DNA of 64,000 nucleotides from IMG/VR virus record IMGVR_UViG_3300008262_000040; one strand, written 5' to 3'. Shown one piece after another: positions 3,016 through 63,840 of this stretch (its first letter is position 1; each line of letters opens with the position of its first letter). The position numbers and the translations under genes are program-made. This DNA comes from a virus. The notes beneath the pieces were generated by a model. It had not been told where the DNA came from. It did not search any database and saw nothing but the letters and a program-made list of their open reading frames with translations.

Positions 3016-4635
3016 TTACATCATTCCAGCCATAGGATCGAGTTGCGAACTCTCATCCTTATCCTTTTTCTGGAATACGATAGACTCTGTGGTGAGTATG
3101 GTACCAGCGACAGAAGCAGCGTTCTTTAGTGCAGTTATCACAACCTTTGCTGGGTCGATGATGCCGGATTCAAAGGCGTCTACCAATCTGTGATTCTTTG
3201 CGTCGTAGACTTGACCTTCGCCTGGTATGTTTTCGAACCAGTTCTCAATGCCAGCGTTAGATAAGATCTTTTTGAAAGGGGCTTGTAAAGCGTTACGTAC
3301 AATGTCCCTAGCTATAGATACGTTATCGCTATTTTCTGCTCTGTGGTTAAGTGCCACTCTGTATAATGTTGCCCCACCGCCTGGTACGATACCATCTGCC
3401 AATGCTGCTTTAGTCGCAAATAGTGCATCTTCTACTCTGTCTTTCTTTTCTTTGATCTCAACCTCAGAGTTTCCTCCAACGTTTATGATGGCTACTCCAC
3501 CTATCATTTTGCCTAAGCGTTCTTGTAGCTTTTCCCTTTCAAAGAACGATGTTGCTTTCTCGATCTGTTCTTTGATCTCGTTAGCTCTTGCTTCGATCTT
3601 CTCTGTTTCTCCTTTACCGTCGACGATTGTTGTTTCGTCCTTAGATACTGTCACAAGTCTTGTAGTTCCGAGATACTGACTCAGGTTCGCAGCAGAGATT
3701 TTATCAAGCTTGTGTCCCTTGTCTTTAGATAACAACTGTCCGCCTGTTAACACTGCAATGTCTTCTAGAATGAGAGTCTTTCTATCTCCAAAATCTGGCG
3801 CTTTGACTGCACACACTTGTACGATTCCACGCATCTTGTTAACGATCATCGTGGCCAGTGCCTCGTCTCCAAAGTCCTCAGCTATCACTAACAACGGTTT
3901 GTTCTCTGAGTTGGCTTTCGTCATAACTTGTAAGAGTTCCTGTGCTGTAGAGATACGTCCATCGTACAACAAAATGTAAGGATTCTCCAATACTGCCTGC
4001 ATCGTAGTGTTGTTTGTTACGAAGTACGGACTCTTGTAGCCTCTTTCGAACTGCATGCCCTCAACCACCTCTAGTTCTGTTTCACCAGACTTTGACTCTT
4101 CAATGGTAACCACGCCCTCTCTGCCTACTTTGTCTATGGCTGCAGCGATAAGATTTCCAACTTCTGTATCGTTGTTACCAGATATGGAAGCCACGTGTTT
4201 AATCTGCTCTTCAGAACTTATGTCTACTGCAAGACTTTTGATCTCTTTTACTATTTCATCAACGATGTTATCTATCTCCTTCTTTACTGCTACTGCGTTA
4301 ACTCCCTGGCGAATTTCCTTCAATCCGGCCTTAACCATCTCTGTAGCTATTAGAGTAGACGTAGTTGTACCATCGCCAGCTTCGTTTGCTGACTTAATCG
4401 ATACCTGCTTTACTAATTGTGCTCCGATGTCTTCAATATCGTCTTCTAATTTGTTGAAGCTCTTTGCTACTGAAACACCGTCTTTAGTAACTTTTACCTC
4501 TCCGTTTGGTTCACGGATTAGTACAGTTCTACCACCTGGTCCCAACGTTGAAGACACTGATGCGTTCAGCTTCTCTACGCCAGCCAATAACTTTTCTTTT
4601 AATTCTTGTCCGAATACGCTTTTTGTTGTGCTCAT
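3016..4635 (-). CDS. groEL: Chaperonin GroEL
   Basis: STLGPGG, VTKDGVSVA, AGDGTTTS, EGMQFERGY, GIVPGGG motifs. Confidence 0.98.
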   Translation of the reverse strand: MSTTKSVFGQELKEKLLAGVEKLNASVSSTLGPGGRTVLIREPNGEVKVTKDGVSVAKSFNKLEDDIEDIGAQLVKQVSIKSANEAGDGTTTSTLIATEMVKAGLKEIRQGVNAVAVKKEIDNIVDEIVKEIKSLAVDISSEEQIKHVASISGNNDTEVGNLIAAAIDKVGREGVVTIEESKSGETELEVVEGMQFERGYKSPYFVTNNTTMQAVLENPYILLYDGRISTAQELLQVMTKANSENKPLLVIAEDFGDEALATMIVNKMRGIVQVCAVKAPDFGDRKTLILEDIAVLTGGQLLSKDKGHKLDKISAANLSQYLGTTRLVTVSKDETTIVDGKGETEKIEARANEIKEQIEKATSFFEREKLQERLGKMIGGVAIINVGGNSEVEIKEKKDRVEDALFATKAALADGIVPGGGATLYRVALNHRAENSDNVSIARDIVRNALQAPFKKILSNAGIENWFENIPGEGQVYDAKNHRLVDAFESGIIDPAKVVITALKNAASVAGTILTTESIVFQKKDKDESSQLDPMAGMM

Positions 4636-4641
4636 ATTTTT

Positions 4642-4935
4642 TTAGTTTTCTAAGATTGCCAATATTTCTGTTTCTTTGATTAAAATGTAATCTTCGCCGT
4701 CAACTGTTACTTTCATAGATCCCATCTTAGGAATCAATACTTTCTGTCCCTTTTCCAATTTCGTCTTGTAGTAAGTACCCTGTTGCCAGTTGTAAGTATC
4801 AGATGAAGCTACTACTTCTCCAACCTCAGGTTTTTCTTTTCCCATGTCAGGAATGACTATGTTGCCGTAAGTCATTTCGTCCTCTTCTATCCATTTTAGG
4901 ACTGCGATTCCGTTAATCGGTTTTAATTTACTCAT
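4642..4935 (-). CDS. groES: Co-chaperonin GroES
   Basis: LKPING...GNIVIPD..KEKP..GEVVA...EILAIL; immediately upstream of groEL; start MSKLKP at 4935. Confidence 0.93.
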   Translation of the reverse strand: MSKLKPINGIAVLKWIEEDEMTYGNIVIPDMGKEKPEVGEVVASSDTYNWQQGTYYKTKLEKGQKVLIPKMGSMKVTVDGEDYILIKETEILAILEN

Positions 4936-4949
4936 GTTTCTGTTTTTAT

Positions 4950-5141
4950 TTAATCGTTTATTATTTCGGCCTCTTCGATCAATTGGCAAAAGTACATGAT
5001 ATTGTCCCTTCTAAAGACAATGTCAGTTTTTAACCAGTCTTTAACCATATCAACGTTTTTTATTCGTTCTTCTGGCCAAGCTCTCTTAATCTGGTAGAGG
5101 GATCCGTTTACTGAAATGTAATTTTTACAAATAGATAACAT
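4950..5141 (-). CDS. Hypothetical protein (63 aa)
   Basis: ORF fills the space between hsp20 and groES. Confidence 0.7.
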   Translation of the reverse strand: MLSICKNYISVNGSLYQIKRAWPEERIKNVDMVKDWLKTDIVFRRDNIMYFCQLIEEAEIIND

Positions 5142-5164
5142 AACTTTACTTGGTAGGCTTAGCT

Positions 5165-5575
5165 TTAATTGATGGTGATTTCTTTTAAGATTTTAGTCTT
5201 TTCTGCGGGAACGTCTAATATCAGAAGTCCCTTTTCCATCTTAGCCTCTAACTTTGCTAGATTGTATTTGTCAGCAACTCTCCAAGCTAGGTCGAAGGAT
5301 CGTCTTGCTATTCCACGTTGAATGTACTCACGAGATTCTGTTTCACCAGGTCCATCGTGAATAACCCTAAGCGTATTGCCTTCTACTTGGATTTTTAGGT
5401 CTTTCTTTTCCAAACCTACAACGGCCAATTCAAACCTTAGGCCTGTTTCAGTTTCGTAAATGTCTACGGGATAATTGATCTTTGTCTTGATGCTGTTGAA
5501 AGTGGAAGTGGTGTCAAAGAAATTCTTCCACATGATGTCGAATGGGTCCATTGCCCAATGTTGTAATTGTGTCAT
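5165..5575 (-). CDS. Small heat-shock protein Hsp20 (alpha-crystallin domain)
   Basis: YPVDIYE...ELAVVG...YIQRGIARRSF...AKMEKGLL. Confidence 0.95.
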   Translation of the reverse strand: MTQLQHWAMDPFDIMWKNFFDTTSTFNSIKTKINYPVDIYETETGLRFELAVVGLEKKDLKIQVEGNTLRVIHDGPGETESREYIQRGIARRSFDLAWRVADKYNLAKLEAKMEKGLLILDVPAEKTKILKEITIN

Positions 5576-5709: not shown

Positions 5710-8016
5710 CTAGTGACCATCTCTAAGGTTATGTGCGATAGCAGGAACTGCCACCAGAGGTACGTTCAACTTGGTTGTATTCTCCATCTTATCTTGTACT
5801 ATCTCTGCGGCTTCTTTTGCTCTCGATTCTTCTACTTCCATAACCAGCTGATCATGGATTTGGGCGATTACTTGACCGTTTATGCCTCTTTTTTGGAACT
5901 CTCTATTTATTGCAATAGCAGCTCTATTTACCACCGAAGCTGCCATACTCTGTATCTGAAAGTTCATTGAAGAGTTGACTCCGTTCTTGTATTGGCTTAT
6001 CAATCTGGTTGCTTTAACTTGTCCGTACTGTTTCTCTAATTGCTTTTTGAAATCGTAGTTCGTTATGGAATCACCAAACACTTCGTATATCTTCTTTAGA
6101 TTGTCCAAGTGTCGTATCCTACCGACCTGTGTTTTGATATAACCGTTCTCCTTTGCAAATAGCTTTGACTCTTCCATCCACTTCTTAAGATTTGGAAACC
6201 CGTTTAAGTAACCGTTAACAAGTTCTTCTGCTTCTTTTCTCTTAACACCTATAGTCATACCAAGCGCGTAAGGCGACATTCCATAAGGTATACCAAGAGA
6301 GTATGCTTTAGCTTTGTTTCTGAGAGCTGGTGCTACCTTCTTTAAGAAGTTTGAGTCTTTAGGATCGGGTGAGTATTGGTTGAGCTTCTCTGTTTTTATA
6401 GCGATGGTCGAATAGAAATCGTAGTCCTTAAAGAATATCTCGTACAATCCCTCGTCACCAGACACGTGAGAGAACACTCGAGGTTCCAATGACGAATAGT
6501 CACAATCTATGAAAATGTTACCTTCTTTTGGTACGAAGAAAGCTCTGATCATGTTGTTGTACTCTACCACTATTGGATCATCGTCGCCTTCTTCTTTAGG
6601 TCTTGGTAACTGCTGAGCATCTGATCCGTACCTACCAGAAACTGTTGCGTGTTGCTTGTAGTAGAAGTAGTAATTGCCGCCTTCCTCTGATTCTAAGAAG
6701 CGATCTACGTAGGTGGATTTTATTTTAAGCAGCTTGTTGTATACTCTAAGACTCTTGGCCCAGTTATGCTTCTTGAATATAGATTGTATGAGATCGTCAT
6801 CGAACTGTGGTTTACCAGTCTTTGTGGTTGATAGAGGCTTTATTCCTAAAGCCCCGAAAGCTATCTCACCCAAGTGATCCTTTGATTGAATGTTAAAGTA
6901 GTTTCCGTTGTTTTGGTCCTTCCACATTTTCACAGCTATCTTGATCTTAATATCTTCCTCAAGGAAAGTTGGATCGTTGGTCTCAAAGAAAGACTTTATG
7001 GGTCCATCTTCAAGGTTTGCGACAGAATTTGTGGTTATAGAATATTTACCGCTAGCTAACTTATCGAAAGGCAACTTAAGCTCTTCTACTAATTCTTGGG
7101 CAAACGCGCCCTTGTTGCTTGGTGGATAGTCCTCCATCGCTCTGTACATCACCCAAGTGCGCACCTCTGGCTTTTCTAACAGTTCCTTTGTTACTATGCT
7201 ATGATATCTAATCAAGTCATCAGAGACTCTCTGTTTAGCTTGGGTGATGAGTTCCATGTCCAATCTAACACCGCACTCTTCCATAGGTATTGTAACTTCC
7301 TTGTATAGAGGCATTACCTCGTCTTCGTAAAAGAACTTAGTTAGTCCCTCCTTTTCAAGTATCTGAGAGAAGTAGTTGTAGATCCTAAGAGTTAAGTCCG
7401 TATCAGCAACGGCGTACTTTCCAAGAATGGATAGGTCAGCTTTGTAAATCTCGTAATTGTCTTTAGATATCGAACCTCCGTTTGCCTTTATGGAAGTCTT
7501 TAGTTCTATTTGCTCTTCGTTGGCTTCCTTCTCTACGTCTAGTCCTATCTCAGCTTGAACAGACTTAGCTATCTCTTTCAAAGCAAATGGTGAACTTGAT
7601 CCGAACCCAGCTCCTTCCTCTCTTACAGTATGCACCATCAACATCGTATCAGCATGCACGCTTGGAGTTAGATCTATTCCGTAAAAGCACTTAACGAATC
7701 TCGTATCGAAAGATAGATTGTGTCCAATTATTTTTTTGCCAACAAGTAGTTCTATTAGCTTCTTAGCGACTGAATGGCAAGATTGTCCTTCTATTTCGTT
7801 CTCTATAAGCTTTTCACCTGAATAGATCATCGTCGGATAGTAGTAACCTGTACCCTCTTTAGTAGTTACTGAGAAACCTACAATTTTACCCTTTCTTGTG
7901 TTTAATGAATTGGTCTCCGTATCAAATGCTATTACGTCTGACTCTAATATGTACTTTGCTAACTCTTTTGTCTTTTCTGTTGAATCTACTATTACATAAC
8001 TTTTTTCTGTTGTCAT
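5710..8016 (-). CDS. polA: DNA polymerase family A with 3'-5' exonuclease domain (no 5'-3' nuclease domain)
   Basis: ExoI FDTET, ExoII GHNLSFD, ExoIII YAVAD; motif A DYSSLEPR, motif B RNKAKAYSLGIPYG, motif C IHDQ. Confidence 0.95.
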   Translation of the reverse strand: MTTEKSYVIVDSTEKTKELAKYILESDVIAFDTETNSLNTRKGKIVGFSVTTKEGTGYYYPTMIYSGEKLIENEIEGQSCHSVAKKLIELLVGKKIIGHNLSFDTRFVKCFYGIDLTPSVHADTMLMVHTVREEGAGFGSSSPFALKEIAKSVQAEIGLDVEKEANEEQIELKTSIKANGGSISKDNYEIYKADLSILGKYAVADTDLTLRIYNYFSQILEKEGLTKFFYEDEVMPLYKEVTIPMEECGVRLDMELITQAKQRVSDDLIRYHSIVTKELLEKPEVRTWVMYRAMEDYPPSNKGAFAQELVEELKLPFDKLASGKYSITTNSVANLEDGPIKSFFETNDPTFLEEDIKIKIAVKMWKDQNNGNYFNIQSKDHLGEIAFGALGIKPLSTTKTGKPQFDDDLIQSIFKKHNWAKSLRVYNKLLKIKSTYVDRFLESEEGGNYYFYYKQHATVSGRYGSDAQQLPRPKEEGDDDPIVVEYNNMIRAFFVPKEGNIFIDCDYSSLEPRVFSHVSGDEGLYEIFFKDYDFYSTIAIKTEKLNQYSPDPKDSNFLKKVAPALRNKAKAYSLGIPYGMSPYALGMTIGVKRKEAEELVNGYLNGFPNLKKWMEESKLFAKENGYIKTQVGRIRHLDNLKKIYEVFGDSITNYDFKKQLEKQYGQVKATRLISQYKNGVNSSMNFQIQSMAASVVNRAAIAINREFQKRGINGQVIAQIHDQLVMEVEESRAKEAAEIVQDKMENTTKLNVPLVAVPAIAHNLRDGH

Positions 8017-8402: not shown

Positions 8403-10299
<1,897 letters not shown>

Positions 10300-10631: not shown

Positions 10632-12008
10632 TTACAGACCTAACTCAAAAAACTTGCTAGATAAGTACTTTTTCTCATCGTTGTCTATTCTACTGAACCC
10701 AGAAGGGGCTGAACTCGTATCTACCTTAAGCTCGGAATCGTCCATTTCAGAAGCGTCTATGTCTATGTGTCCATTAGCTGTATTTATTTTAGCAGAAAAA
10801 GTCATACCATCGCTTCCAAATCTGTTTTTGATAACGTGAATTCTACCGGTTCCAGCGAGCTTATCTCCCCTTTTTCTTGATAGTGACATAGCAAAGTCGG
10901 CTATCATGATCTTATCGTAAGAACCAGCTATCTTATCGGCCTCGATAATGTCGTCTTTACTACCCATACGATTAACCTGACTAACTGTCCAAATTGGAGT
11001 CCTTATCTGCCTTGCCAAACCCTTGATTGAAGTATACACATCATCAATTTGATCTTTTCTTTCTGATGACTTAGACTTAGATCTCAGCAAGTCAACGTAA
11101 TCTATAATGACTAGATCTGGCTTGTGTCCAAGAGTTACGCACTTCTGAATGTGGGTCTCTATGCTAGAGGGCGTGGTTTTTCCCATTGGGTATTCTTTAA
11201 TGATTAACTTGCCAGGTAATGAGTTAATGGTCTCCTCTATCAATTTTCTACTCTCAGTCTTATGAATATTTTGAAAGTCTATTCCTGTGAGTATAGAATC
11301 GTAACGCTTACCTACATACTCTTGAGAAAGTTCTAGCGTGTAGTGACATACTGTGTATCCCATTTTAACTGCTGTGGCTCCCAAGTTAATTAAGAACCAA
11401 GATTTACCTCCACCTGGAGAACCCAATACCATGCCTAGATCACCAGCTCCGAGGCCTCCCATTAATAGGTCGTTGATGTGTGGCCAAATAGTTGGTACAG
11501 CGCCACGCTCTTCTAGTCTATATCTGCTTTCTAAGTCTTTTTCGTATTCGTGTCCTAAATCTCTGCTCTGTCCTGCTTTAAGAGCTTGATCGATCATAGA
11601 TCTGATGTCGTCGTACTGACCTTTTGTAAGCAACTCTACGGAGTTCATCAAAGCCTTTTTCAATTGTTGGTTCTTACAGAAGTTACTAAACTCTGTCTCA
11701 ACGTACTCTTGATCCTCGTTGATTGCTTTTAACGCCTCTTTAAGCTGCTCCACTATTGTTACTTTCAATACGTCGTTCTCAATCTTCTTTACTTCAACAG
11801 ATAAATACTCAGGAGTTGGATTTGCGTGGTACTTTGAGTAGTACTTTAGTGTTTCCTCAACTATCCACTTGTGAGCTGGGTTATCGAACTCCTCTGGGTT
11901 TAATAGATCGTAAACCCCGTGTAAGAACTCCTTGTGTTTTAGAAGCGACGATATTACCTTTATCTGAAAAGATACTCCGTACGCTTGTAAAGTGTTTAAT
12001 GTACTCAT
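10632..12008 (-). CDS. Replicative DnaB/gp41-like helicase
   Basis: Walker A GSPGGGKS, YTLE, IIDYVDL, SQVNR, IKNRFG. Confidence 0.93.
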   Translation of the reverse strand: MSTLNTLQAYGVSFQIKVISSLLKHKEFLHGVYDLLNPEEFDNPAHKWIVEETLKYYSKYHANPTPEYLSVEVKKIENDVLKVTIVEQLKEALKAINEDQEYVETEFSNFCKNQQLKKALMNSVELLTKGQYDDIRSMIDQALKAGQSRDLGHEYEKDLESRYRLEERGAVPTIWPHINDLLMGGLGAGDLGMVLGSPGGGKSWFLINLGATAVKMGYTVCHYTLELSQEYVGKRYDSILTGIDFQNIHKTESRKLIEETINSLPGKLIIKEYPMGKTTPSSIETHIQKCVTLGHKPDLVIIDYVDLLRSKSKSSERKDQIDDVYTSIKGLARQIRTPIWTVSQVNRMGSKDDIIEADKIAGSYDKIMIADFAMSLSRKRGDKLAGTGRIHVIKNRFGSDGMTFSAKINTANGHIDIDASEMDDSELKVDTSSAPSGFSRIDNDEKKYLSSKFFELGL

Positions 12009-12011
12009 GTA

Positions 12012-13028
12012 TTAATTATATTTGCTTAAGTTAAAAAAATGATTGTGTAACCATGTCCTTGGGTCTTTTATGCTCGCGCCTAGATCGTCTTCTTCATACA
12101 ATCTAAGAAATTCTTGCGAATTGAACTGCTTATAAGGTTCGAGTATTACATTTTTTATTACTTGTACGTCTTCGTCAGGTATGTTTGGAGATCTTAGATC
12201 CATCAATAATTTATTTATCTTTATCTGACTTTTGAAGTTAATTATGTTATTGTGTACCTTCTTCTTTCCAGTTTCACACACGTTAAGCACCTCTTCCAGA
12301 GTCATTTCCGTGCTCTTGGCCAGCGCAGGAAATTCCTTAAGTAAAGTCTTAGGTCCTAAACCTATAACACCCGGAACGTTATCCCCTGAGTCCCCAAGAA
12401 GCATCTTCTGTAATAAGAAGTTGTTTGGATGCACTCCGTATTCAGAAAGCACCCTACCTTCGTTATACAAAATCTTCTTTGTTGGAGAATAAATAGTAAC
12501 CTTTTCGCTGACAAGTTGCAAGTAGTCCCTATCGCTCGACATGATGGTGATATCTCCGTCCACTATTGAAGTCAAATATCCTATCACGTCGTCTGCCTCT
12601 ACTTTATCGATAGACAATATATCAACAGGCAAACAACGCAAATACTCTATGAGTCTTACGAGTTGATTGGTTATAGATTCTGACTCTTCTTCTTGACTTT
12701 CGTAGTGGTCCCAATTGGTTATTCTCTTTATACCTCTATTTGCTTTGTACTCTGGATAGATATATCGCTTATTTGTTGAAGACCCTTTGCCGTCAAATAC
12801 CAATATAACTCTTGTAGGTCTGACTATGTTTATCACTGAACCCATCGATCTAAGAAACCCAGTTAGTCCTCCTATGGGCGTTAAATTCCTATTTGTGTGC
12901 TGTATTACAGCGAATGCTCTCATGAATGTATTTAACGAATCTATGAGCAACACACGACTGTTTACCTTCAACTCCTCTTGCTTTTCTTCTTTCAAGGAGT
13001 CGAACAATTTTTTATAGTCTTCTCTCAT
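12012..13028 (-). CDS. 5'-3' exonuclease / flap endonuclease (T4 RNase H-like)
   Basis: LLIDSLN, VFDG, YKANR, EADD, SSDRD, GDSGDNVPGVIGLGPKT. Confidence 0.93.
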   Translation of the reverse strand: MREDYKKLFDSLKEEKQEELKVNSRVLLIDSLNTFMRAFAVIQHTNRNLTPIGGLTGFLRSMGSVINIVRPTRVILVFDGKGSSTNKRYIYPEYKANRGIKRITNWDHYESQEEESESITNQLVRLIEYLRCLPVDILSIDKVEADDVIGYLTSIVDGDITIMSSDRDYLQLVSEKVTIYSPTKKILYNEGRVLSEYGVHPNNFLLQKMLLGDSGDNVPGVIGLGPKTLLKEFPALAKSTEMTLEEVLNVCETGKKKVHNNIINFKSQIKINKLLMDLRSPNIPDEDVQVIKNVILEPYKQFNSQEFLRLYEEDDLGASIKDPRTWLHNHFFNLSKYN

Positions 13029-13038
13029 TTTTTGTTTT

Positions 13039-14109
13039 TTATTCTGATTCGTCGTACGCTATGGTAGTTTCTACTTGTTCTTCGATCAACTCAAAATCTG
13101 CAGACCCAAGAACTCTTATCCACTCTTCGGAATGTTCGTTTTTATAATTGTTTATCGCAGATGGAGAATCATCAATGAAACCGTGTGGAGTCATTATCAC
13201 CTTAGAAACAGCTGTAACTCCAGTGATGTGGTTCTTATCGCACGATATCCTTGTTCTTTTGGCGAATTCGATGTCTTTACCAGCCTTGCTTGCTTTGATC
13301 TTATTGGTACCAGCTTTTGCTACGTTACCAAAAGTGATTACGAGAGAGGCATCGAAGTACATTGTGTTTCCTCCTTTGTTCTGCAATGTTGGTTGACCCA
13401 TCGGATTGTCTGGTTTAGCTACCCACACCTTATTAATAGCGATCAAGGTATTTGTGAACGGTTGACTTTCCTTTCTGCTCAATACGATTCTCTGATTGAT
13501 GAAGTTACCGAACTGCTGTGACATAGCTCCTGCGTTCCACTCGTTGTTGTTAGTTGACTTCTCTACAGACATTCTACAAGGTATTGAGCCAACTGAGTCC
13601 CAAAAGAAGCACAGATCGTACGGTAGATTGCCCTTCTTCTGTTCGTCGAGTATGTCTGCTATGAACGCAGCTACGTCTTCTACACACTGTAACTTTTCAC
13701 GATCTATGAATATGAAGAATCCATCGTAATCGCAAACAACACCATCTTCGTTAGCAACCTCATTGAATTGTAGTCCCATAAGCCTCGCGTGCTCCCAAGA
13801 CCACTTCATCTCTGTAATAACGAAAACTGGTAGTATGCCCATCTTTTGACAGGACACTGCTGCTTCCAATAAGGCTGTGGTTTTGCCAGTATCTGAGTGG
13901 CCACGAAGTAGACTTATGTGTCCAACTGGAAGACCGGGTACTTGTAACGCCTCTTGAAACGATTTTGATAGTGGTATCCAACGATCGTCTTTGAACTTAA
14001 CAGACGTAGTGCTGAGGTTCTTCTTCTTTTTGAAACCTTCTAAGTTGAATCCCCCTTTAACTGCGTTAGATATAGCGCCGTTTAGACTTTGTTTTTTTTC
14101 TTTTGCCAT
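13039..14109 (-). CDS. RecA/UvsX-like recombinase
   Basis: Walker A GHSDTGKTT, Walker B FFWDSVG, KGG loop. Confidence 0.88.
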   Translation of the reverse strand: MAKEKKQSLNGAISNAVKGGFNLEGFKKKKNLSTTSVKFKDDRWIPLSKSFQEALQVPGLPVGHISLLRGHSDTGKTTALLEAAVSCQKMGILPVFVITEMKWSWEHARLMGLQFNEVANEDGVVCDYDGFFIFIDREKLQCVEDVAAFIADILDEQKKGNLPYDLCFFWDSVGSIPCRMSVEKSTNNNEWNAGAMSQQFGNFINQRIVLSRKESQPFTNTLIAINKVWVAKPDNPMGQPTLQNKGGNTMYFDASLVITFGNVAKAGTNKIKASKAGKDIEFAKRTRISCDKNHITGVTAVSKVIMTPHGFIDDSPSAINNYKNEHSEEWIRVLGSADFELIEEQVETTIAYDESE

Positions 14110-14122
14110 ATTAGATTAAAAT

Positions 14123-14139
14123 GCCCCTCTGGGAGGGGC
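14123..14139 (-). terminator. Hairpin/terminator after the SSB gene
   Basis: GCCCCTC-cca-GAGGGGC with T tracts on both sides. Confidence 0.7.
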
Positions 14140-14144
14140 TTTTT

Positions 14145-14924
14145 TTAGAAGTTGAAAATGTCGTCTATCTTAGAATCTAGGTTTGGTTTACCCGTATTCA
14201 AAGAAAACTTTGGAGTTTCTACTGGAGCTGCGGGCGTTTCTTCTGTTTCTTCCTCTTCGCTCTCTGGGTTTAGATAGCCCAACAAAGCGGCTTTCATGTC
14301 GTCGTAGCCGTAGCGCTTGAATTGAGTGACTGGATCTGGTTGTTCTGTCATCCACTTTTTAACTAGATCTGCGTTCTCTGACAACGGAGTTACCTTTGTT
14401 CTCACGCGGATCGTTGATTTGTTATAAGTCAAACCTGTTGATTCCTTACCCAATGTTTCGATCGTGATGTCTCGTCCCTGTAAAGGATCTGTGTAGTCTC
14501 CGACGTCCTCGTCTTCAGCGATTGATAAAAGATCCATGAAGATTTGTTTACCGAAGCCCCAAAGCATAACGCCTTTGTCTTCTTCGCCTCTAACGATAAC
14601 GGGTACGAAAACGCGCATCTTGGGTTCAAGCTTTTTGGCTAGTTGCCAGTCCTCACGGTTTGAAGACTTTCTAAGACCCTGTGCGAACTCTACGATTGGA
14701 TCTTTTTCTCCGAAGTTTGTCAGAGCGATCATCGTCTTGTTTCCAATCTCGTAGTGGAAATAGAGCTCTTTGAACGGGTTTGACTTGTTGTAAGCCGATG
14801 GTAGCACTCTCACCGAATGCTTACCTACTGTTGGGGACCAAAGGGTTTTTTGTAACTCACCCTTGGAACCGCCTTTTGGATTTTGCAAAGATTGTAGTCT
14901 TTGTCTTAGCATGTTAATGTCCAT
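14145..14924 (-). CDS. Single-stranded DNA-binding protein (gp32-like)
   Basis: VRVLP...PFKELYFHY...LWGFGK...YTDP..GRDI core; acidic tail ending IDDIFNF. Confidence 0.85.
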   Translation of the reverse strand: MDINMLRQRLQSLQNPKGGSKGELQKTLWSPTVGKHSVRVLPSAYNKSNPFKELYFHYEIGNKTMIALTNFGEKDPIVEFAQGLRKSSNREDWQLAKKLEPKMRVFVPVIVRGEEDKGVMLWGFGKQIFMDLLSIAEDEDVGDYTDPLQGRDITIETLGKESTGLTYNKSTIRVRTKVTPLSENADLVKKWMTEQPDPVTQFKRYGYDDMKAALLGYLNPESEEEETEETPAAPVETPKFSLNTGKPNLDSKIDDIFNF

Positions 14925-14988: not shown

Positions 14989-15414
14989 TTACAAGTTCAC
15001 GATTTTTTTAATTTCGGTGTTTAGTTTCCGAAATTTAGAGTCTTGTACCAGCAGTATGGAATTTTTGTAATCCTGCCAGTTAACGGGGTATTTGTTGTCA
15101 AGGACTCCACCGTTCAAGCTCATTATTAGAGCGTTAAGAGAATTGATCGTGTATAGCGTGTTGGTCTCTTTCTTTCTGTGCACAAGGATGGTGTTCTTCA
15201 TTATTCTTGGCTGATCGTCTGTGTAGTCTATGTTGTAGGTACACATCAGCTCTGAAGATTCTGGTGAACTCAAAACGAATATCTTTTTGTAAAGTACCGA
15301 GTATTCGCGATTTATTGACTCTACCAGCTCGTTTAGCCCTTCTTCTGTAGTAAATGTGCAAAACAGCTTGTTTTTTAGCATCTCTCTTGTTATTCTGTAT
15401 TCTTCTTTAAACAT
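14989..15414 (-). CDS. Hypothetical protein in the replication cluster (start may be 15381)
   Basis: Open frame between the PolA-like gene and SSB; ATATTTAT at 15417-15424. Confidence 0.75.
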   Translation of the reverse strand: MFKEEYRITREMLKNKLFCTFTTEEGLNELVESINREYSVLYKKIFVLSSPESSELMCTYNIDYTDDQPRIMKNTILVHRKKETNTLYTINSLNALIMSLNGGVLDNKYPVNWQDYKNSILLVQDSKFRKLNTEIKKIVNL

Positions 15415-15433
15415 TTATAAATATGTTTGTTTT

Positions 15434-16708
15434 TTACAAAAAGTATGTTTTTCCGTGTTTGTGTTTTACGACCATGCTGTCCTGCTCTAATACTTCCTTT
15501 ATTTTTAAAAGCAATTCTTTGCCATCTGACACAGCGTAGTCAAATAGGAAAGCGTCGTAAGTTATCAACACAAGTTTGCTCTTCTTTCCTTCTAAAAGAT
15601 CTTTCAATTGTAGGATCTTCTCTGCGTTTCTTTTAGTTTCCAAGTTCTGTACGTAGTAGTTCAACAGTTTGCTATCGTACATGTCTTCATCTCTTGTAAT
15701 ACTTATCCCAGTAGGTAGCTCCATGGACTCACCAGTAGCGCACCTCTGGCTTAGTTTTTTTGATAACGTTACCATAGCACTAAAGAATTCAATGTGCTGG
15801 TAAGCTTCTGGTACGCCCCCATATAAGTTTTTAAAGCTTATAGTCTTGGATTCTTTGTACTCCTCTTCTGTTAATGCATCTTTATTGAAGTACTGCTTAC
15901 CAAGATACTCGTGAACAGAGCTTTCTTTGAACTCGTAGCCAACTTCGTTACCTATTAGCCTGAGGTGGTAGCCATCGAAGTCGAACTCTACCAAATAGTC
16001 GTTTGAAGGTACAAAACAATCTCTATATTCTCTGTCTTTTGGTATAGCCAAAAAGTTTATACCGTTAAAAGAGTTAGTAGGTCTACCTGTTTGATTGTAC
16101 AGATTGTATTGGTTGTATATGTTATCTCCATCTATAGAAGCTTCTTCATTGTTTACTTTAAATTTCTCAAAAAATAGCTTTTTGTTTATCTTTATTGGAT
16201 TGCTTTCAACGTAAGAGTAAGCTGAAATAACACTATTAAGATTTTGATTTTTAGGTCTACTCATCTCGAACTTGTAAATATCGAAAACTCTCTCCAGTCT
16301 TTCGTAGTGTTTAACAACAGGAATTATCGAGTTTAATTCACTAGACCACTGGTATTTTTGTTCGTACTCAAGTTGAGCGTTTGTTCTCGTATCGTTTTGC
16401 GATTGTTTAGAAAAAGACAGATCAACGAAGTTGTCCACTTTCATGAAATGCGAGTGATACTTTTTGTCCAATACGTAGACAGTTTCGTGTTTTTGTATGA
16501 AATCGAGTATGTGTTCGTTGTCTATACCAAAACACTCGCTGTGATCGACGCAAAGCATGTAACCCTTTTCGCTGTTTCTATAATAGTATAAACAGGCTTT
16601 AGCTAATCTAGGATGAAAATTGTGATTATTTGGTATCAATTGTAAGAAACAACTGCTTTGTACCCTAAGCGAATCCAACTGATCCTTTGTTTCTACTATG
16701 AAATGCAT
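15434..16708 (-). CDS. Divergent, shortened family-A polymerase homolog
   Basis: TGRPTN..GINFLAIPK, motif A EFDFDGYHLR, motif B YKESKTISFKNLYG, NYYVQ, motif C TYDA. Confidence 0.8.
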   Translation of the reverse strand: MHFIVETKDQLDSLRVQSSCFLQLIPNNHNFHPRLAKACLYYYRNSEKGYMLCVDHSECFGIDNEHILDFIQKHETVYVLDKKYHSHFMKVDNFVDLSFSKQSQNDTRTNAQLEYEQKYQWSSELNSIIPVVKHYERLERVFDIYKFEMSRPKNQNLNSVISAYSYVESNPIKINKKLFFEKFKVNNEEASIDGDNIYNQYNLYNQTGRPTNSFNGINFLAIPKDREYRDCFVPSNDYLVEFDFDGYHLRLIGNEVGYEFKESSVHEYLGKQYFNKDALTEEEYKESKTISFKNLYGGVPEAYQHIEFFSAMVTLSKKLSQRCATGESMELPTGISITRDEDMYDSKLLNYYVQNLETKRNAEKILQLKDLLEGKKSKLVLITYDAFLFDYAVSDGKELLLKIKEVLEQDSMVVKHKHGKTYFL

Positions 16709-16760: not shown

Positions 16761-17399
16761 CTATTGGGTAGTGGTAGGTCTAGCAAACTTTGCGTAATCC
16801 TCACCTATAAAAGCTTTGAGACCTAAAAACTTGGTGTCTGCGCCTTCTATCAATCTTTTATTCGTGTCTACTATTCCTGCTCTAATATCGTATTGAGATA
16901 GTCTAACTGTGTTCAATGGTCCTGTTAACTTCCATAATATAGACTGTATTTGATAGTAAGATACGTCGTATTCAACAGTTCCCTGCTCTATACCTACATA
17001 CTCTTGTTCGGAGATCTCTTTTACATAACCCTGTTCGTTTATCTTTTTTACAAAGAATCTGTAAAAGTATCCTCTGTTATAATCTGGTTCTGTTGGTTTT
17101 GGGTGATAACTTGTTGGTTGGGTTCTATCTTTGGGCTCTACAACAGCTGCCGCGGTTATGGTAAATTGTGATCTAGACTCTGGCGATAATCGACCTCGTT
17201 GGTTTGTTGATAGAAGATTGTTTTTTATCGGGTCTAACCTTTCGTTTGGGCCGACAGCTGGATTAGCGCCTGTATAAAACTTGCCATCATAAGTAGCATA
17301 GTATAACCCACTATATGGCACACCATTTAGCCTATATTCATTTCCGCGTGTTGTAAGATTTGTTTTTACTCTAAAAGACGGATAGTATCTAATCGGCAT
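16761..17399 (-). CDS. Hypothetical protein, probably baseplate-associated
   Basis: Last gene of the tail/baseplate operon. Confidence 0.6.
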   Translation of the reverse strand: MPIRYYPSFRVKTNLTTRGNEYRLNGVPYSGLYYATYDGKFYTGANPAVGPNERLDPIKNNLLSTNQRGRLSPESRSQFTITAAAVVEPKDRTQPTSYHPKPTEPDYNRGYFYRFFVKKINEQGYVKEISEQEYVGIEQGTVEYDVSYYQIQSILWKLTGPLNTVRLSQYDIRAGIVDTNKRLIEGADTKFLGLKAFIGEDYAKFARPTTTQ

Positions 17400-17407
17400 T
17401 TTATGAA

Positions 17408-20400
17408 TTATTTAAAATCTTTTATAATGTTCCATGCGCCTAAACCAGATTTTCTTCTTTCTGCTCTTTTTTGAGAATCTGTTATATATGGAACTGAAAA
17501 CTCATAATAATCAATCCAATACAGCGCTGCCAATTCTGCGCCAGTGGCGTCATTAGGCACACTTTTTAATTTCGAAACTAGATTGGGCCTAGAAGAAGCT
17601 TCTTTCAATATAAATAGCATCTGAGTTTCAAGATTGTCTGCTGATGCACCTCCTCTGCTATTTACAAAATTAACATAATTATCTAATCTTTTACCAACCC
17701 ATTGCGGAATTCCATAAGCAGTAACTCTTTTTCCATTATATGTTGGCGTTGTGAACATTCCTGTTTTTACAGCAGCTGTTTGTTGATCTGTCTTTTGCCC
17801 CTTCCCACTTCCAGCTTCGACAGTGGTTTTTCCTGAACCCCTTTCTGTAGCTCCTATTATCCAAACGTAGGGGTTTAAACCGGATTCTCGATACATAGTA
17901 CCCAACGCACCTGCTGCAGCTGCTTGACTATAACCCTCTGCTTTAAATAATAGCCACATTTTTTCAAGATCTCCTCTAGCTCTTGATAAATTATCGGCCA
18001 GTACATTTCCAGTTTGGTATAGATCTCCGGTTGGAACAAAACCTGGAACGCCTAAATTTGATTCTTGAGAATTATTAGTAGGTTTAGGAACCCCTTTCCA
18101 TGTTCCATCGACTAATTTTGATGGCTTGTTTTGATACCCAGCTATGTTTTTTACGTAATACATGTTAGCTTTTACGTCTGTTGTCCAAGAGTTGTTCTGT
18201 ATAGTGTGATCTAGACCTGTGATTATAAACCCAACTCTGCGTGTCGCGTTTTGTCCAAATCCTCCAGCCGCTATGGTATAAGAATAGGGTAGCATCTCTT
18301 CAGGTATTGTAAAAGCGTGATAAATTTCTGGATCTTTTTCAGTATTCCTTGCTTTTGCAACAGCCTCTATGTAATAATTGATAGCCTGTTCTACTCCCTC
18401 TTCTGATCTGCTTCCCCCTAAATAATAACCCTTAACTGATTCATTGAATCTAGAGGCAGCGAGTGCTTTTCTTTGAAGCTCCAAAGAGCCTGTATTTAAT
18501 TTAGCTTTAGCATTGTCGTTTACTGCTGTAGTAACAGGTCTATATCTATTTATCGCGTAAAGACTTGAATTTCCTACGCCTGTTCCATCTGTACCAGCCG
18601 TTGTTTGGTTTTTTACGTCTGAATTCGCACTTATAGCAAGCATATTGCTCAATTTTGTGCTATTATCTGTTTGTATTGTAAAAGATCTAGCTATTGACTG
18701 TTTTCCAAAAACCGGGATTTCGTATGGGACTGTATTTAGTATGTTTACGTTGTCTACAGCATTCATCACGTTATTTCCAGGTATAGCTTGATCGTCTACT
18801 ACACAGAAACAGTTAGAGTAGTCATCGTACGCGAGTCTAAGCACATTGAAATTTCCCAAGGATTTACTAAGATCAGACAGTATTTCGTCCATTAAAGATC
18901 TAAAATAAACAGAGTTAGTTTCATCTTTTGTAGCGTGACTTCTTATAGTATCTAACAGGTAGTCTATGCTAACAAGCACATTCATCAATTTCCCTCTATA
19001 GTTAGGTAACGCCGAATTGTTTGTTGTTTGAAACTTAAACGGTGGAAGAGTCTTTGATACCGCATCGGTTGTCCATAGATCTGTTGCGTTTGACTCTTTA
19101 TTAACCGCTATTATTTTATCACCCTGCAGTATTTTTGGATCGAAAAGCTTTTTATAAGAACTTAATTCTCCCTTGAACGGAACTACGAATTTGTAAGGAT
19201 TTGCGCTTAACATAAAATCGGAGGATAGTATTATGTTGCTTCCTTGATTGAAATCTAAATAGAAGAGAGGTATGTTTAGATCCGGTTCTGTGGTATCATA
19301 CAAAAATCCGCAGTGATTAAGGATCATAAAAAAGAATCCCATAGTTACATACGTCGGATAGTGTATATCTCCCCCTTCAACTAGGTTTTTAGATTGATAG
19401 TAAGGTATAACAAAAGATTGGAGTATCTCAGCAAAATTAATCGCGTATTCTTTGTCCTGTCTTATAGCTTCTAATACAGTTGGATCATTTACCCCATCGT
19501 CTTTCATCAAATTTCTATGAAAACCAAATAAAGCGTTTGTTAAAAATCTATCTTTTTTACCAAAATTAGAAGCAGCATAATACGCGTTGTCCGTAATAGC
19601 TTTATTTATTATTTCGTCTGGTTTTTCTATAATCTGTTGCAAATTTCCTTTTCCAAAAGCGCCGTCAGCAAATATGTTGTACAGAGACTGTTTATCCTTT
19701 CCTTTTGGATCACCCCACTTTATAGAATCGACTTTGCTTATCTCTCCGTTACCGCTTATGAATCTTTCTATGGTCAACAGTTGAATCGTCCTAAGTATGC
19801 CCTCCATCTGCGATTTGTACATTGCAGCTTCTGAATTCTGTAGATCGTCTACCTTCACTTTTGTATAATCGGGCGGTACGTACGCTGGGATTTGAGCGCC
19901 CTGACTAGGCACTGGAGGAGCTACGTTAGTCGAAGGATTGGGCGATATATAAGCATCTGTTATTTGCCATTTAGTTACCAAATCAAAATCTGATATACCT
20001 ATACCAATTCTAACATCTTGTTTTACGTAAACTGTTTTTTTTGGTATATTTGCTCGACCGGTTTGTACTATAGGACCAATTGTGCCTGGTAAATTATCCA
20101 CTGGTATCAATCCTTCAAATATTGCTCCGTATTCGCTGTTAACTTGTATTTGTAATAGAGATAACAACCAATTTCCTGATAGAACTTGTACTATAGCATC
20201 AACTATTTTTTGTCTCGTTTCTCCTTCTTTTCCCGGCCCATCAGTTTCTACATTTCCCGTCTTAAAGGCTGGATCATATGTAACACCCGAGGTTTTTGAA
20301 AATTTTGTAGAATATCTTATGTATATCTTTCTTGTTCCTATTGATTTTCTAACTGCGCCACTAGCGTATTCTATTGTATAAAATCCATCATCCTCCCCTG

Positions 20401-22177
20401 TTGGAAAATTTCCAAAGGTGCCAGTACGTAAAGTGTCATTCGCCGCGTAATCTACATCAAAATAAGTTATGTAACCATTAGCGTCTTTTGTTTCTAGAAC
20501 AATAGTTTTACCTGCTCCACCATCCACATTTAATTTATCTGGGGAACCACCTTGAATTGCAGTAACGCCTGTGTTAACATTAGCAGAGGTTGATATATTA
20601 TTTGGTCCCAAAATAGTATTCAAATCAGTATTTACAGATCCCAGACCGAGTATACTTCTTATTTGGGGTAAATTCCAATTAAATGCAGCTTTTACGTTAT
20701 TGGGTCTTAATAAAGCTCCAGGAAAAGTTTTTTCTTTAAGTCTAAGTACAGTTTTTTCTTTTTGTAAAATGTAATAATACTTTTCTTGATCGTTTTTTTG
20801 ATTTCTGTCTTCTACATATATATTATCTGTTGATCCAGGATACTTAGGGTCATTCAGCGTAGAATATCTTTTAGTATCTTTTTTAACATCTGCAACAAAT
20901 TGATCAAATTTCAAAGGACCAGGATCTGGAGTATTTATTGGTTTTCCTGAAGACTTATCCACAATATTAGAACCATTACACTCAAAGGTTGTGATCGTTG
21001 TTCCTTTTCTAAAAGTAGAATTTATAAAAAATACGTAGTCTTTTAGTTCTGATGTTGCTGCAGAAGGTTTTGCGTATGTTTCGTTATTGACGGTGACTAT
21101 TTGAAATTCTCCTGCGTATATTCTGTCTCTTATGCAACCAGGGTAATTATCTCTATTGCTTGGATCGTTCTTTGCAGCCGATGTTTGAGCTGTTATTAGG
21201 GCAACCTTTTCCTCGTATTCTCGTCTTGCTATAGCTTCAGCTTGATTTTTGTTTATGTTTGTAATAATGTTAGCTATTTTGCCTATAGCGTCTTTAAATG
21301 TATCGGGAAGCGAGGCTATCGTGTTAGTTCTCATAGACTCAGCCAACATACCAGGACCTATGACTTTTAGTTTACAGTCGTAACCACCTTCTGTGTTTGA
21401 CGTAAAGCTAAAATTTGTAACAAGGCCAACCATTGCGTCGTAATTACCGTCTGTTTGCCTTATCGCTTTGGCTATTTCAACCCTGAGTTTAGCCTCGTCC
21501 ATATCTGCTTTGAATGGGTCTACAGCGTAGTCTTCTGATTTTTGAAGAACGTCGTAAGGCTCTAACTGATTTGTAGGATTGTTTTTTTGTTTGTAGAAGA
21601 ATGTGTTTCCCCACTCAATGAACATGGTGTATCCAAGCTTAAAGTAGAGAATATCTACTACGTCCAACTGTTGTTTAGTGTTTACTTTAAAGTCTATGTC
21701 TGCCTGTAGTATAGAACCGAGTTTACCCTGTGTGGTTATCTTAGCTGCAGTTATGCCTGCTATAGGTCTTAATCCGTAAGTTGGATCTATGTTATTGACA
21801 TCGAAGTACGGTTTGGGTTCGTATCTCGGTGCTGTAGTATTTTTAAAATCGTCTAACGGATCACTATTCCTATCTGGCGAAATCTGTGTTACGTCCATCT
21901 TTCCAGTATACGCACTGGTACCGCCAAATAAAACGAAAGATTTTGCTAATTTTTCTTCGTCAGAAGGCAATTTTGTGATTCTCTTAATCGAATCAGCGTA
22001 CGATCCAGTTATGTTTACTGATGAAACTACCCTGATCCATCCGCTTTTGTTTGCCATGTATACTAGAGCATTATCGTCTCTAGTATCTAAAGTTTTATCG
22101 CTCCTTATGTAAAACTGATTTATTACATATTCTGGCACAGGTTGGCCGAGTATACTATCTAGTTCTGTGTAACCCAT
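17408..22177 (-). CDS. Large baseplate hub-like protein with a C-terminal phage-tail-lysozyme domain
   Basis: Follows the LysM/gp53-like gene; C-terminal AAAAGALGTMYRESGLNP...AYGIPQW. Confidence 0.65.
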   Translation of the reverse strand: MGYTELDSILGQPVPEYVINQFYIRSDKTLDTRDDNALVYMANKSGWIRVVSSVNITGSYADSIKRITKLPSDEEKLAKSFVLFGGTSAYTGKMDVTQISPDRNSDPLDDFKNTTAPRYEPKPYFDVNNIDPTYGLRPIAGITAAKITTQGKLGSILQADIDFKVNTKQQLDVVDILYFKLGYTMFIEWGNTFFYKQKNNPTNQLEPYDVLQKSEDYAVDPFKADMDEAKLRVEIAKAIRQTDGNYDAMVGLVTNFSFTSNTEGGYDCKLKVIGPGMLAESMRTNTIASLPDTFKDAIGKIANIITNINKNQAEAIARREYEEKVALITAQTSAAKNDPSNRDNYPGCIRDRIYAGEFQIVTVNNETYAKPSAATSELKDYVFFINSTFRKGTTITTFECNGSNIVDKSSGKPINTPDPGPLKFDQFVADVKKDTKRYSTLNDPKYPGSTDNIYVEDRNQKNDQEKYYYILQKEKTVLRLKEKTFPGALLRPNNVKAAFNWNLPQIRSILGLGSVNTDLNTILGPNNISTSANVNTGVTAIQGGSPDKLNVDGGAGKTIVLETKDANGYITYFDVDYAANDTLRTGTFGNFPTGEDDGFYTIEYASGAVRKSIGTRKIYIRYSTKFSKTSGVTYDPAFKTGNVETDGPGKEGETRQKIVDAIVQVLSGNWLLSLLQIQVNSEYGAIFEGLIPVDNLPGTIGPIVQTGRANIPKKTVYVKQDVRIGIGISDFDLVTKWQITDAYISPNPSTNVAPPVPSQGAQIPAYVPPDYTKVKVDDLQNSEAAMYKSQMEGILRTIQLLTIERFISGNGEISKVDSIKWGDPKGKDKQSLYNIFADGAFGKGNLQQIIEKPDEIINKAITDNAYYAASNFGKKDRFLTNALFGFHRNLMKDDGVNDPTVLEAIRQDKEYAINFAEILQSFVIPYYQSKNLVEGGDIHYPTYVTMGFFFMILNHCGFLYDTTEPDLNIPLFYLDFNQGSNIILSSDFMLSANPYKFVVPFKGELSSYKKLFDPKILQGDKIIAVNKESNATDLWTTDAVSKTLPPFKFQTTNNSALPNYRGKLMNVLVSIDYLLDTIRSHATKDETNSVYFRSLMDEILSDLSKSLGNFNVLRLAYDDYSNCFCVVDDQAIPGNNVMNAVDNVNILNTVPYEIPVFGKQSIARSFTIQTDNSTKLSNMLAISANSDVKNQTTAGTDGTGVGNSSLYAINRYRPVTTAVNDNAKAKLNTGSLELQRKALAASRFNESVKGYYLGGSRSEEGVEQAINYYIEAVAKARNTEKDPEIYHAFTIPEEMLPYSYTIAAGGFGQNATRRVGFIITGLDHTIQNNSWTTDVKANMYYVKNIAGYQNKPSKLVDGTWKGVPKPTNNSQESNLGVPGFVPTGDLYQTGNVLADNLSRARGDLEKMWLLFKAEGYSQAAAAGALGTMYRESGLNPYVWIIGATERGSGKTTVEAGSGKGQKTDQQTAAVKTGMFTTPTYNGKRVTAYGIPQWVGKRLDNYVNFVNSRGGASADNLETQMLFILKEASSRPNLVSKLKSVPNDATGAELAALYWIDYYEFSVPYITDSQKRAERRKSGLGAWNIIKDFK

Positions 22178-26774: not shown

Positions 26775-26809
26775 TTATGATTTACTATACAAATAAATAT
26801 GTAAGCAAT

Positions 26810-30671: not shown

Positions 30672-30719
30672 TGGGTATTGTTTTTATCTATCAATAAATA
30701 TGTAAATTTACATCAAAAT

Positions 30720-42896: not shown

Positions 42897-42966
42897 GTTT
42901 CACTACCTCAGTTCACTGTCCCTGAGGTGCGGTTTGATATAAATATCGTGAATTTGTTTATTTTTA

Positions 42967-57818: not shown

Positions 57819-57853
57819 TGTGATTATTGGTTTTTTGTTTTGTTTTTGATTTT

Positions 57854-59020: not shown

Positions 59021-59140
59021 AATTTTTTTTTGGTTTTTAATTGCTTATTGTAGATTGAAGCAATATGTGTTTTTTTGATCTAGTGCAATAGTGGGATTTG
59101 CACATTTATCAATAAATATGTATATTTTTGGTAGAATCGC

Positions 59141-61695: not shown

Positions 61696-61713
61696 ACTAA
61701 TAAATATGTTAAG

Positions 61714-63803: not shown

Positions 63804-63840
63804 ATTGCGTTAATAGTCTATCTATAAATATAACAAATAA

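Follow-up and report, generated by a model that had tools for sequence, protein, structure and literature searches.

A compact Klenow-like polymerase of the divPolA1 family with histidine at the sugar-gate position in a large myovirus

A group of diverged family-A DNA polymerases of large phages was delineated by computer analysis and named divPolA1 by Yutin, Tolstoy, Mutz, Wolf, Krupovic and Koonin (2024, Virol J 21:200; PMC11348598). According to the passages of that paper that deal with the group, divPolA1 occurs in 14 phages of 155–190 kb, with Flavobacterium phage immuto as the type carrier, and is always additional to a regular PolA, PolB or PolC. The same passages describe a truncated thumb, the replacement of all three exonuclease Asp residues, conserved palm residues, polymerase activity judged to be probably retained, and conserved replication genes downstream. 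The words "steric" and "ribonucleotide" do not occur in the text of the paper, and "primase" occurs only outside the divPolA1 passages. Here we report that the 424-amino acid protein P0001, encoded at 15434..16708 on the minus strand of a 64,000-nucleotide stretch of viral DNA (IMG/VR record IMGVR_UViG_3300008262_000040; hereafter the window), is a member of divPolA1, with nothing to separate it from the rest of the family. An earlier reading of the same DNA, made from its letters and open reading frames (ORFs) and hereafter called the sequence-only reading, had put this gene forward as an undescribed system, a claim that fell with the clear homology of P0001 to the type carrier. What our analysis adds to the published description is a nearly invariant His at the steric-gate position, Tyr in place of Arg754, Ser or Ala in place of Glu883 and an invariant Glu357, together with a co-inherited gene for a 141-amino acid protein, canonical primases in the relatives, and the size of the family in metagenomes (1,038 clusters compared with 14 phages).

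The Pol I large fragments (Klenow, Bst and KlenTaq) resemble divPolA1 in fold, from the exonuclease-like domain through to motif C, and share with it the TGR motif and motifs A, B, 6 and C; in Bst and Taq the exonuclease domain is likewise dead. In contrast to these fragments, divPolA1 is ~155–180 residues shorter, with ~85 of the missing residues in the thumb, and carries His at Glu710, Tyr at Arg754 and Ser or Ala at Glu883. The 5′ nuclease, which is part of Pol I, is a separate gene in the divPolA1 phages, three genes downstream. A second comparison is with divPolA2 and the T7-like single-subunit RNA polymerases, which like divPolA1 are PolA-derived and have unusual or missing thumbs. T7 RNA polymerase, however, has Gly at the site of the PolA gate Glu, where divPolA1 has His, and P0001 has no promoter-binding or RNA-separating domains within its 424 amino acids. 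Matches to RNA polymerases are reported for divPolA2, and none is reported for divPolA1 in the divPolA1 passages of PMC11348598.

Two further systems are built on trimmed polymerases of this kind. TV-Pol (Iyer, Abhiman and Aravind 2008, PMC2579912) is another minimal core of the PolA type, for which priming and extension have been proposed; its fingers carry the motif RxxxK, its thumb has two helices, and it is fused with D5-type helicases or encoded beside them, whereas divPolA1 has YxxxK, an exonuclease-like N-terminal domain and a DnaB context. The CcPol-MP or PolA-SSB primases of Bacillota mobile elements (Bebel 2020, PMC7581432; Rice 2023, PMC10061031) likewise combine a trimmed family-A polymerase and a shortened thumb with a small protein encoded next to it and a helicase nearby. 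CcPol nevertheless keeps the equivalents of Glu710 and Phe762 (PMC7581432), in contrast to the His at the divPolA1 gate, and because this enzyme, the one PolA-based primase that is proven, keeps this Glu and uses deoxynucleoside triphosphates, it offers no precedent for a gate His. Its partner MP has an oligonucleotide/oligosaccharide-binding (OB) fold (PMC10061031), whereas the small neighbour of divPolA1 has an alpha+beta fold; CcPol replaces a missing primase, whereas the relatives of P0001 have DnaG; and we saw no sequence relationship between CcPol and divPolA1 beyond the PolA fold.

Fold and active site of the polymerase

The ORF proposed for the polymerase is real at exactly 15434..16708, and our analysis adds that it lies on the minus strand. 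As a single sequence, the 424-amino acid P0001 gave no match in Pfam, PHROGs or the PDB, and NCBIfam returned just one partial match of 16.6 bits; because these library scans were empty, the family was reached only through profiles of homologues. A precomputed PF00476 match was found on some of these homologues, whereas the Pfam scan of P0001 itself was negative. The profile used throughout (A1) represents 149 diverse divPolA1 homologues with identities to P0001 down to 28%. The closest annotated phage was immuto, in which the same gene order starts with gp001 ("DNA polymerase family A"): tblastn of P0001 against the immuto gene (1–1326) gave 37% identity over 93% of the query (E 1e-69), and the A1 profile matched the gp001 ORF at E 2e-163. 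A protein 100% identical over its 336 amino acids (79% of the query) was found on a 163,643-bp contig. P0001 thus combines homology to the type carrier with a catalytic palm, a truncated thumb, the presence of a second polymerase and downstream replication genes, all traits of divPolA1.

Alignment of the 149-homologue profile to the E. coli Klenow fragment (E 1.1e-10) brought all motifs into register, and hhalign of divPolA1 to the window's own 768-amino acid PolA gave the same register. The motif coordinates that follow were verified by translation and all refer to the minus strand. The TGR motif of P0001 (TGRPTN, 16073..16090; TGRPSN in the profile) pairs with TGRLSS of Klenow, Arg209 corresponding to Arg668. 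In motif A (DFDGYHLR, 15959..15982), the profile efDfdaYHlrLia pairs with SADYSQIELRIMA of Klenow, which places the catalytic Asp243 at Asp705 and His248 (codon 15965–15967) at the steric-gate Glu710. Motif B, the O-helix (YKESKTISFKNLYG, 15818..15859; profile eykesKeitFkqlYG), aligns with Klenow QRRSAKAINFGLIYG; here Tyr284 stands for Arg754 and Lys293 for Gly763, while Lys288, Phe292 and Tyr296 are retained as the equivalents of Lys758, Phe762 and Tyr766. The profile segment nYliQslET of motif 6 (NYYVQNLETKRN in P0001, 15626..15661) is matched to NAPMQGTA, with Gln354 at Gln849 and the family-specific Glu357 opposite Ala852. Motif C (YDAFLFD, 15539..15559; profile ytYDSfLfD) is matched to QVHDELVFE, so that the catalytic Asp385 corresponds to Asp882, and Ala386, a position with Ala or Ser in the family, to Glu883. 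All of the family-A (PF00476) motifs TGR, A, B, 6 and C are therefore present in a Klenow fold, and the His in place of the gate Glu is a deviation within family A that gives no reason to exclude divPolA1 from this fold.

The mean column identity of the 149-sequence alignment was 33%, and six residues were invariant throughout: R209, D243, K288, Q354, E357 and D385. H248 was present in 146 sequences (98%), the remaining three having Gln, and comparable conservation was found for Y384 (146/149), Y296 (145/149), D390 (144/149, 97%) and F292 (141/149); Y284 occurred in 112 of the 149. G297, like F292 and Y296, was retained in at least 91% of the sequences. Invariant or nearly invariant active-site residues at identities down to 28% indicate that the active site is under selection. 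In this alignment, the gate His is a trait of the family and not a local oddity, and the same holds for Ser or Ala in place of Glu883 and for the new invariant Glu357, three residues past the equivalent of Gln849. The motif A, B and C assignments of the sequence-only reading, with His at the Glu710 position, were borne out by the Klenow profile and by hhalign, and Asp243, His248 and Asp385 showed the conservation that it had set as a check. The family as a whole is large, with 1,038 clusters at 50% identity in public metagenomes and ~1,600 relatives or clusters at 90%, and nearly all of its members are 410–460 amino acids long.

An AlphaFold2 model of P0001, built with the alignment, reached a predicted local distance difference test score (pLDDT) of 96.6 and a predicted template modelling score of 0.93. 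With this model, Foldseek matched PolA structures at E 1e-17, and VIA-align of residues 1–424 gave Z 24–26 over 350–400 aligned residues with the Bst, Klenow-type and KlenTaq large fragments. The best VIA-align match was the Bst large fragment (Z 26, 400 residues aligned), with residue 1 of P0001 aligned with Bst residue 300 onwards. The best 50 structural matches in Foldseek and in VIA-align consisted entirely of DNA polymerases and included no RNA polymerase. Based on this superposition over the whole length of Bst, Klenow and KlenTaq fragments, P0001 is modelled as a complete but compacted Klenow-type large fragment, in which an exonuclease-like domain is followed by the polymerase domain.

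The main site of compaction is the thumb, which is ~85 residues short. In the hidden Markov model (HMM) alignment only 6 profile positions bridge the ~91 Klenow residues from IERNG to the TGR motif, and in the AlphaFold2 model the thumb region, a stub of ~residues 175–200 (16109..16186, minus strand), holds just two short helices, 176–182 and 188–191. The helix between the TGR motif and motif A is also short, with 4 residues in the model (226–229). The N-terminal 3′–5′ exonuclease-like domain (~residues 1–125, 16334..16708, minus strand) appears catalytically dead from the model and the alignment. The exonuclease fold is present in the model, and the Asp position of ExoI, the exonuclease motif mapped here, is hydrophobic (I/L/V) in all homologues, in keeping with the earlier statement that the exonuclease motifs are not recognisable; the ExoI Glu (Glu6) is partly retained (76%). 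The domain also retains His32 (95%), His56 (99%), Lys83 (91%) and Asp96 (89%), which are candidates for a remodelled metal or binding site.

The replication module and its 141-residue protein

A T4-type major capsid protein (56160–57881) and a tail sheath (28494–30671) are encoded in the window, which belongs to a large myovirus and has all of its genes on the minus strand. The divPolA1 gene is the second gene after the tail genes, with an ORF of 212 amino acids in between. Downstream follow the gene for the 141-amino acid protein P0270 (14989..15414) and then four genes identified with Pfam and PHROG: a gp32-type single-stranded DNA-binding protein (14145–14924), a UvsX/RecA recombinase (13039–14109), a 5′–3′ exonuclease (FEN, 12012–13028) and a DnaB-like helicase (10632–12008). 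This gp32-to-DnaB run is collinear over 10632..14924 and is preceded by the 141-amino acid ORF, so that divPolA1 does head a cluster of single-stranded DNA-binding protein, RecA, exonuclease and helicase genes, as had been noticed from the letters. A ribonucleotide reductase gene (8455–10299) comes next. The same gene order was found in 80 IMG/VR loci, in immuto, in the Microcystis phage Mel-JY01 and in the 484-kb assembly LR756508. In the IMG/VR loci the collinear run consists of tail, 212-amino acid protein, divPolA1, 141-amino acid protein, gp32, UvsX, FEN, DnaB and ribonucleotide reductase genes; in Mel-JY01 and LR756508 it is collinear too, with insertions. divPolA1 opens a fixed module, with which it is inherited and which continues with the genes of the 141-amino acid protein, gp32, UvsX, FEN and DnaB.

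A full PolA is encoded separately in the window, as the sequence-only reading had stated. This regular enzyme of 768 amino acids (5710–8016, minus strand) contains both a 3′–5′ exonuclease and a polymerase domain (PF01612, E 6e-15; PF00476, E 1e-67). Immuto likewise has a regular PolA (gp199, 777 amino acids), and Mel-JY01, whose divPolA1 is 29% identical to P0001, has an 855-amino acid PolB and no regular PolA; LR756508 has a PolB plus a DnaE-like gene. Among five large IMG/VR contigs, one (G001) carries a 768-amino acid PolA and four carry a PolB of 858–877 amino acids. Since the main polymerase varies between PolA, PolB and PolB plus a DnaE-like protein, divPolA1 is independent of its type and is retained whichever type is present. 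The regular PolA of the window has Leu at the position of Klenow Phe762 (AKAYSLGIPYG) and Glu at the gate (DYSSLEPR), and it fits the "Leu762" type of PolA reported for marine virioplankton.

Primases were found wherever enough of the genome was available. Immuto has an annotated DnaG primase (gp091), and a Toprim primase-sized ORF is present in immuto, Mel-JY01 and LR756508 (3/3). The Pfam Toprim_2 model alone missed most primases; with the immuto primase protein as query, all four IMG/VR relatives that are at least 94% complete yielded a protein 46–47% identical to it. These DnaG-type primases mean that divPolA1 does not compensate for a missing primase, and the idea that it fills such a gap was rejected on the strength of these relatives. 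The priming function suggested by the sequence-only reading thereby lost its main contextual argument. A search for sigma factors in the relatives returned a single match, which was below threshold.

The 141-amino acid protein P0270 is a conserved companion of the polymerase. It is 50% identical to immuto gp002 and 42% identical to its Mel-JY01 counterpart, and on one 172-kb contig its identity was 77% compared with 50% for the polymerase; in these sequence comparisons P0270 is more conserved than divPolA1. It has more than 7,900 homologues, and 33 columns were invariant in an alignment of 36 sequences. A P0270 profile was used to retrieve the 80 IMG/VR loci, 65 of which have enough upstream DNA to judge; in 65 of 65, divPolA1 lay directly upstream of the P0270 homologue on the same strand, with a gap of mostly −25 to +51 nt. 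Because the entire run is collinear, this adjacency is due to shared ancestry within one clade and cannot on its own be taken to indicate a complex. What is upheld of the earlier suggestion that the protein at 14989–15414 possibly works with the polymerase is its strict co-inheritance and high conservation.

The AlphaFold2 model of P0270 (pLDDT 88) shows an alpha+beta fold with two beta-alpha-beta-beta units. Foldseek found no match to it in the PDB at E ≤ 0.001, its own family alone was matched in BFVD, the ESM Atlas gave template modelling scores ≤ 0.45, a feature-based search was empty, and no OB-fold match appeared in the structure searches. The best VIA-align score was Z 6.0. The only resemblance over the full length was to the origin-binding domains of polyomavirus T antigens (Z 5.0–5.8, below the reliability mark of the tool), in alignments of 73–86 residues with 10–18% identity. 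The modelled P0270 thus faintly recalls viral origin-binding domains, a likeness that we regard as a lead and not as a finding. Five singleton fusions containing the 141-amino acid domain were also seen, two with the C-terminal part of the polymerase (P0392 and P0395), one with gp32 (P0394), one with a FEN fragment and one with other sequence; how to read them is ambiguous, as they could be genuine fusions or artefacts of assembly or frameshifts.

The intergenic spacer between the two genes (15415..15433, minus strand) contains ATATTTAT at 15417–15424, just ahead of the P0270 start, and in at least 51 of 79 related loci a TATTTAT core stands ahead of the homologue of P0270. The element is enriched in the window, with 26 copies compared with 7.1 expected and none of 100 shuffles reaching 26. 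The coding (minus) strand carries 22 of the 26 copies, mostly within ~60 nt upstream of start codons, and structural and replication genes are preceded alike; besides 15417–15424, the sites include 26793–26800, 30694–30701, 42939–42946, 59112–59119, 61700–61707 and 63824–63831. ATATTTAT recalls the T4 late promoter, TATAAATA, and from its sequence and placement it may be a phage promoter or a translation-start element. Its position between the two genes suggests that the gene for the 141-amino acid protein may start its own expression unit.

Possible roles of divPolA1

We favour, with moderate confidence, a role of divPolA1 as an accessory, distributive, non-proofreading short-patch DNA polymerase of the gp32-UvsX-FEN-DnaB module. 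The observations behind this proposal are the fold, the catalytic residues, the lost exonuclease Asp, the lost thumb, the synteny, and the coexistence with regular polymerases and primases. To judge from the motifs and the alignment, the enzyme is reduced to an apparently dead exonuclease-like domain, the palm, shortened fingers and almost no thumb, and is probably catalytically competent. The 768-amino acid PolA would copy the bulk of the genome and divPolA1 would make short patches. One such task could be to fill gaps where Okazaki fragments meet, in concert with the separate 5′ nuclease, an arrangement that would amount to a "split Pol I" encoded by two genes; another could be the extension of UvsX/gp32 recombination intermediates. 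In removing primers, Pol I works together with its 5′ nuclease. Truncation of the Pol I thumb lowers its processivity (Minnick 1996, as cited in PMC10061031). On account of these two properties of Pol I, we infer for divPolA1 a DNA-polymerase activity of low processivity that serves short patches.

Several points weigh against this proposal. The sugar-gate Glu, which is His in 98% of the divPolA1 members, is kept even in the primase-like CcPol (Bebel 2020, PMC7581432) and is labelled highly conserved across 19 PolA clusters (Czernecki et al.). An ordinary gap-filling polymerase would not need Tyr for Arg754, Ser or Ala for Glu883, or the new Glu357. In its divPolA1 passages, PMC11348598 ties the conserved replication context to divPolA1 and not to the regular polymerase, and such a context could point to a more central role. 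Synteny as such reflects vertical inheritance within one phage clade and supports any given partner or task only weakly. Since the changes at the sugar-gate, Arg754 and Glu883 positions are left unexplained by a short-patch role, a function with an altered substrate or in priming keeps a small share of the probability.

Such a function would consist of a relaxed or reversed sugar selectivity, or of chain initiation, with divPolA1 inserting ribonucleotides, making or elongating RNA or mixed primers, or serving as a minimal RNA polymerase, perhaps with the aid of the 141-amino acid protein as a DNA binder; it would have its parallels in CcPol-MP or the T7-like RNA polymerases, and we consider it unlikely. 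The replacement of the gate Glu by His in 146 of 149 sequences and of the triphosphate-contacting Arg754 by Tyr is consistent with it, as are the near absence of the thumb and the helix of only 4 residues between the TGR motif and motif A in the model, a site at which a short helix has been linked to room for the initiating nucleotide in RNA polymerases and CcPol (Bebel et al., PMC7581432). A polymerase working with a small protein also has a precedent as a PolA-based primase in CcPol-MP, and the small neighbour of divPolA1 is strictly co-inherited. However, a DnaG-type primase was present in every relative checked, P0270 does not share the OB fold of MP, and with the conserved TATTTAT between them the two genes need not form a single unit. 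The side chain of His matches that of Glu in bulk, and the 2′-OH may therefore still be excluded; Phe292 and Tyr296 are DNA-polymerase-like, and the best 50 structural matches in both searches were DNA polymerases. There is a small chance that the His gate, the Tyr for Arg754 and the lost thumb jointly allow ribonucleotide use or the start of chains. Large aquatic phages would then have in divPolA1 a third means, based on PolA, of making primers or short RNAs, and the 141-amino acid protein might direct divPolA1 to DNA.

Translesion synthesis on phage DNA damaged by ultraviolet light or oxidation in sunlit waters, comparable to that of the exonuclease-dead Pol theta and Pol nu or of actinobacterial APEX, seems to us about as improbable. 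It agrees with an exonuclease-dead enzyme that is accessory to a proofreading polymerase, with UvsX and gp32 in the adjacent module, and with carriers that are aquatic phages of flavobacteria and cyanobacteria, and the relevant part of the PolA cluster literature links accessory exonuclease-dead PolAs to repair. divPolA1 nevertheless has none of the insertions typical of Pol theta and Pol nu, its altered residues contact the sugar and triphosphate and not the template lesion pocket, and no lesion-related genes are fixed in the module across the IMG/VR loci. Less likely again, divPolA1 could be the true replicative polymerase, with an accessory factor, perhaps the 141-amino acid protein, replacing the grip of the thumb and with the regular PolA or PolB doing another job. 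It is divPolA1 that the conserved replication context holds while the regular polymerase is swapped between families, and the 141-amino acid gene is better conserved than the polymerase; yet replication without proofreading would be costly for a ~160 kb genome, the regular polymerases are intact with exonuclease domains, and the contact between the polymerase and the 141-amino acid protein that it calls for is hypothetical. Finally, the losses of Glu883, Arg754 and the exonuclease site would suit a catalytically inactive relic with a structural or regulatory role, which we regard as very improbable, given that both metal-binding Asp residues and the equivalents of Lys758, Arg668 and Gln849 are invariant in the 149 sequences.

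divPolA1 is among the smallest intact Klenow-fold polymerases and is abundant, and one of the most conserved residues of PolA, the ribonucleotide-excluding Glu, is in it a nearly invariant His. Whether the His gate keeps, relaxes or inverts sugar selection is relevant to polymerase mechanism and to the engineering of small polymerases, and the role of divPolA1 bears on why, throughout a clade of large phages, a second polymerase is retained when the main one is readily exchanged. If divPolA1 is an ordinary short-patch DNA polymerase, the finding amounts to routine annotation.

Further genes of the window and its relatives

The DNA of the divPolA1 phage clade is probably modified. Immuto carries a full 7-deazaguanine DNA-modification set, FolE, QueC, QueD, QueE, QueF and DpdA, within 13000–62999, and a 114-kb relative has QueC and PTPS (19068–20473) just past the replication module. 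DpdA acts after replication. A polymerase for base-modified nucleotides, which the sequence-only reading had also suggested, was set aside, since DpdA is post-replicative and the altered residue points towards the sugar; substitution at this gate is uninformative on base-modified nucleotides. That reading as a whole is upheld in part, for conservation and for the co-inherited neighbour, and found no support on novelty, on priming or on modified nucleotides.

The 212-amino acid protein between the tail genes and divPolA1 (16761–17399, minus strand) had no match in Pfam, PHROG or NCBIfam, and its position is conserved in Mel-JY01 (25% identity), LR756508 and many IMG/VR loci. A 1,589-amino acid protein (17408–22177, minus strand) is encoded immediately upstream of the module and is conserved there in most related loci, with weak endolysin and tape-measure-like matches only near residues 1402–1530. 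Genes for GroEL (539 amino acids), GroES (115 amino acids) and Hsp20 (136 amino acids) adjoin the regular PolA at 3016–5575 (minus strand), and the divPolA1 passages of PMC11348598 give the same GroEL/GroES/Hsp20 neighbours for all divPolA1 phages. The ribonucleotide reductase of the window (8455–10299, minus strand) has the B12-dependent class II insertion domain (PF21995) and immuto has NrdA/NrdF in the same place; the type of ribonucleotide reductase is swapped within the clade.

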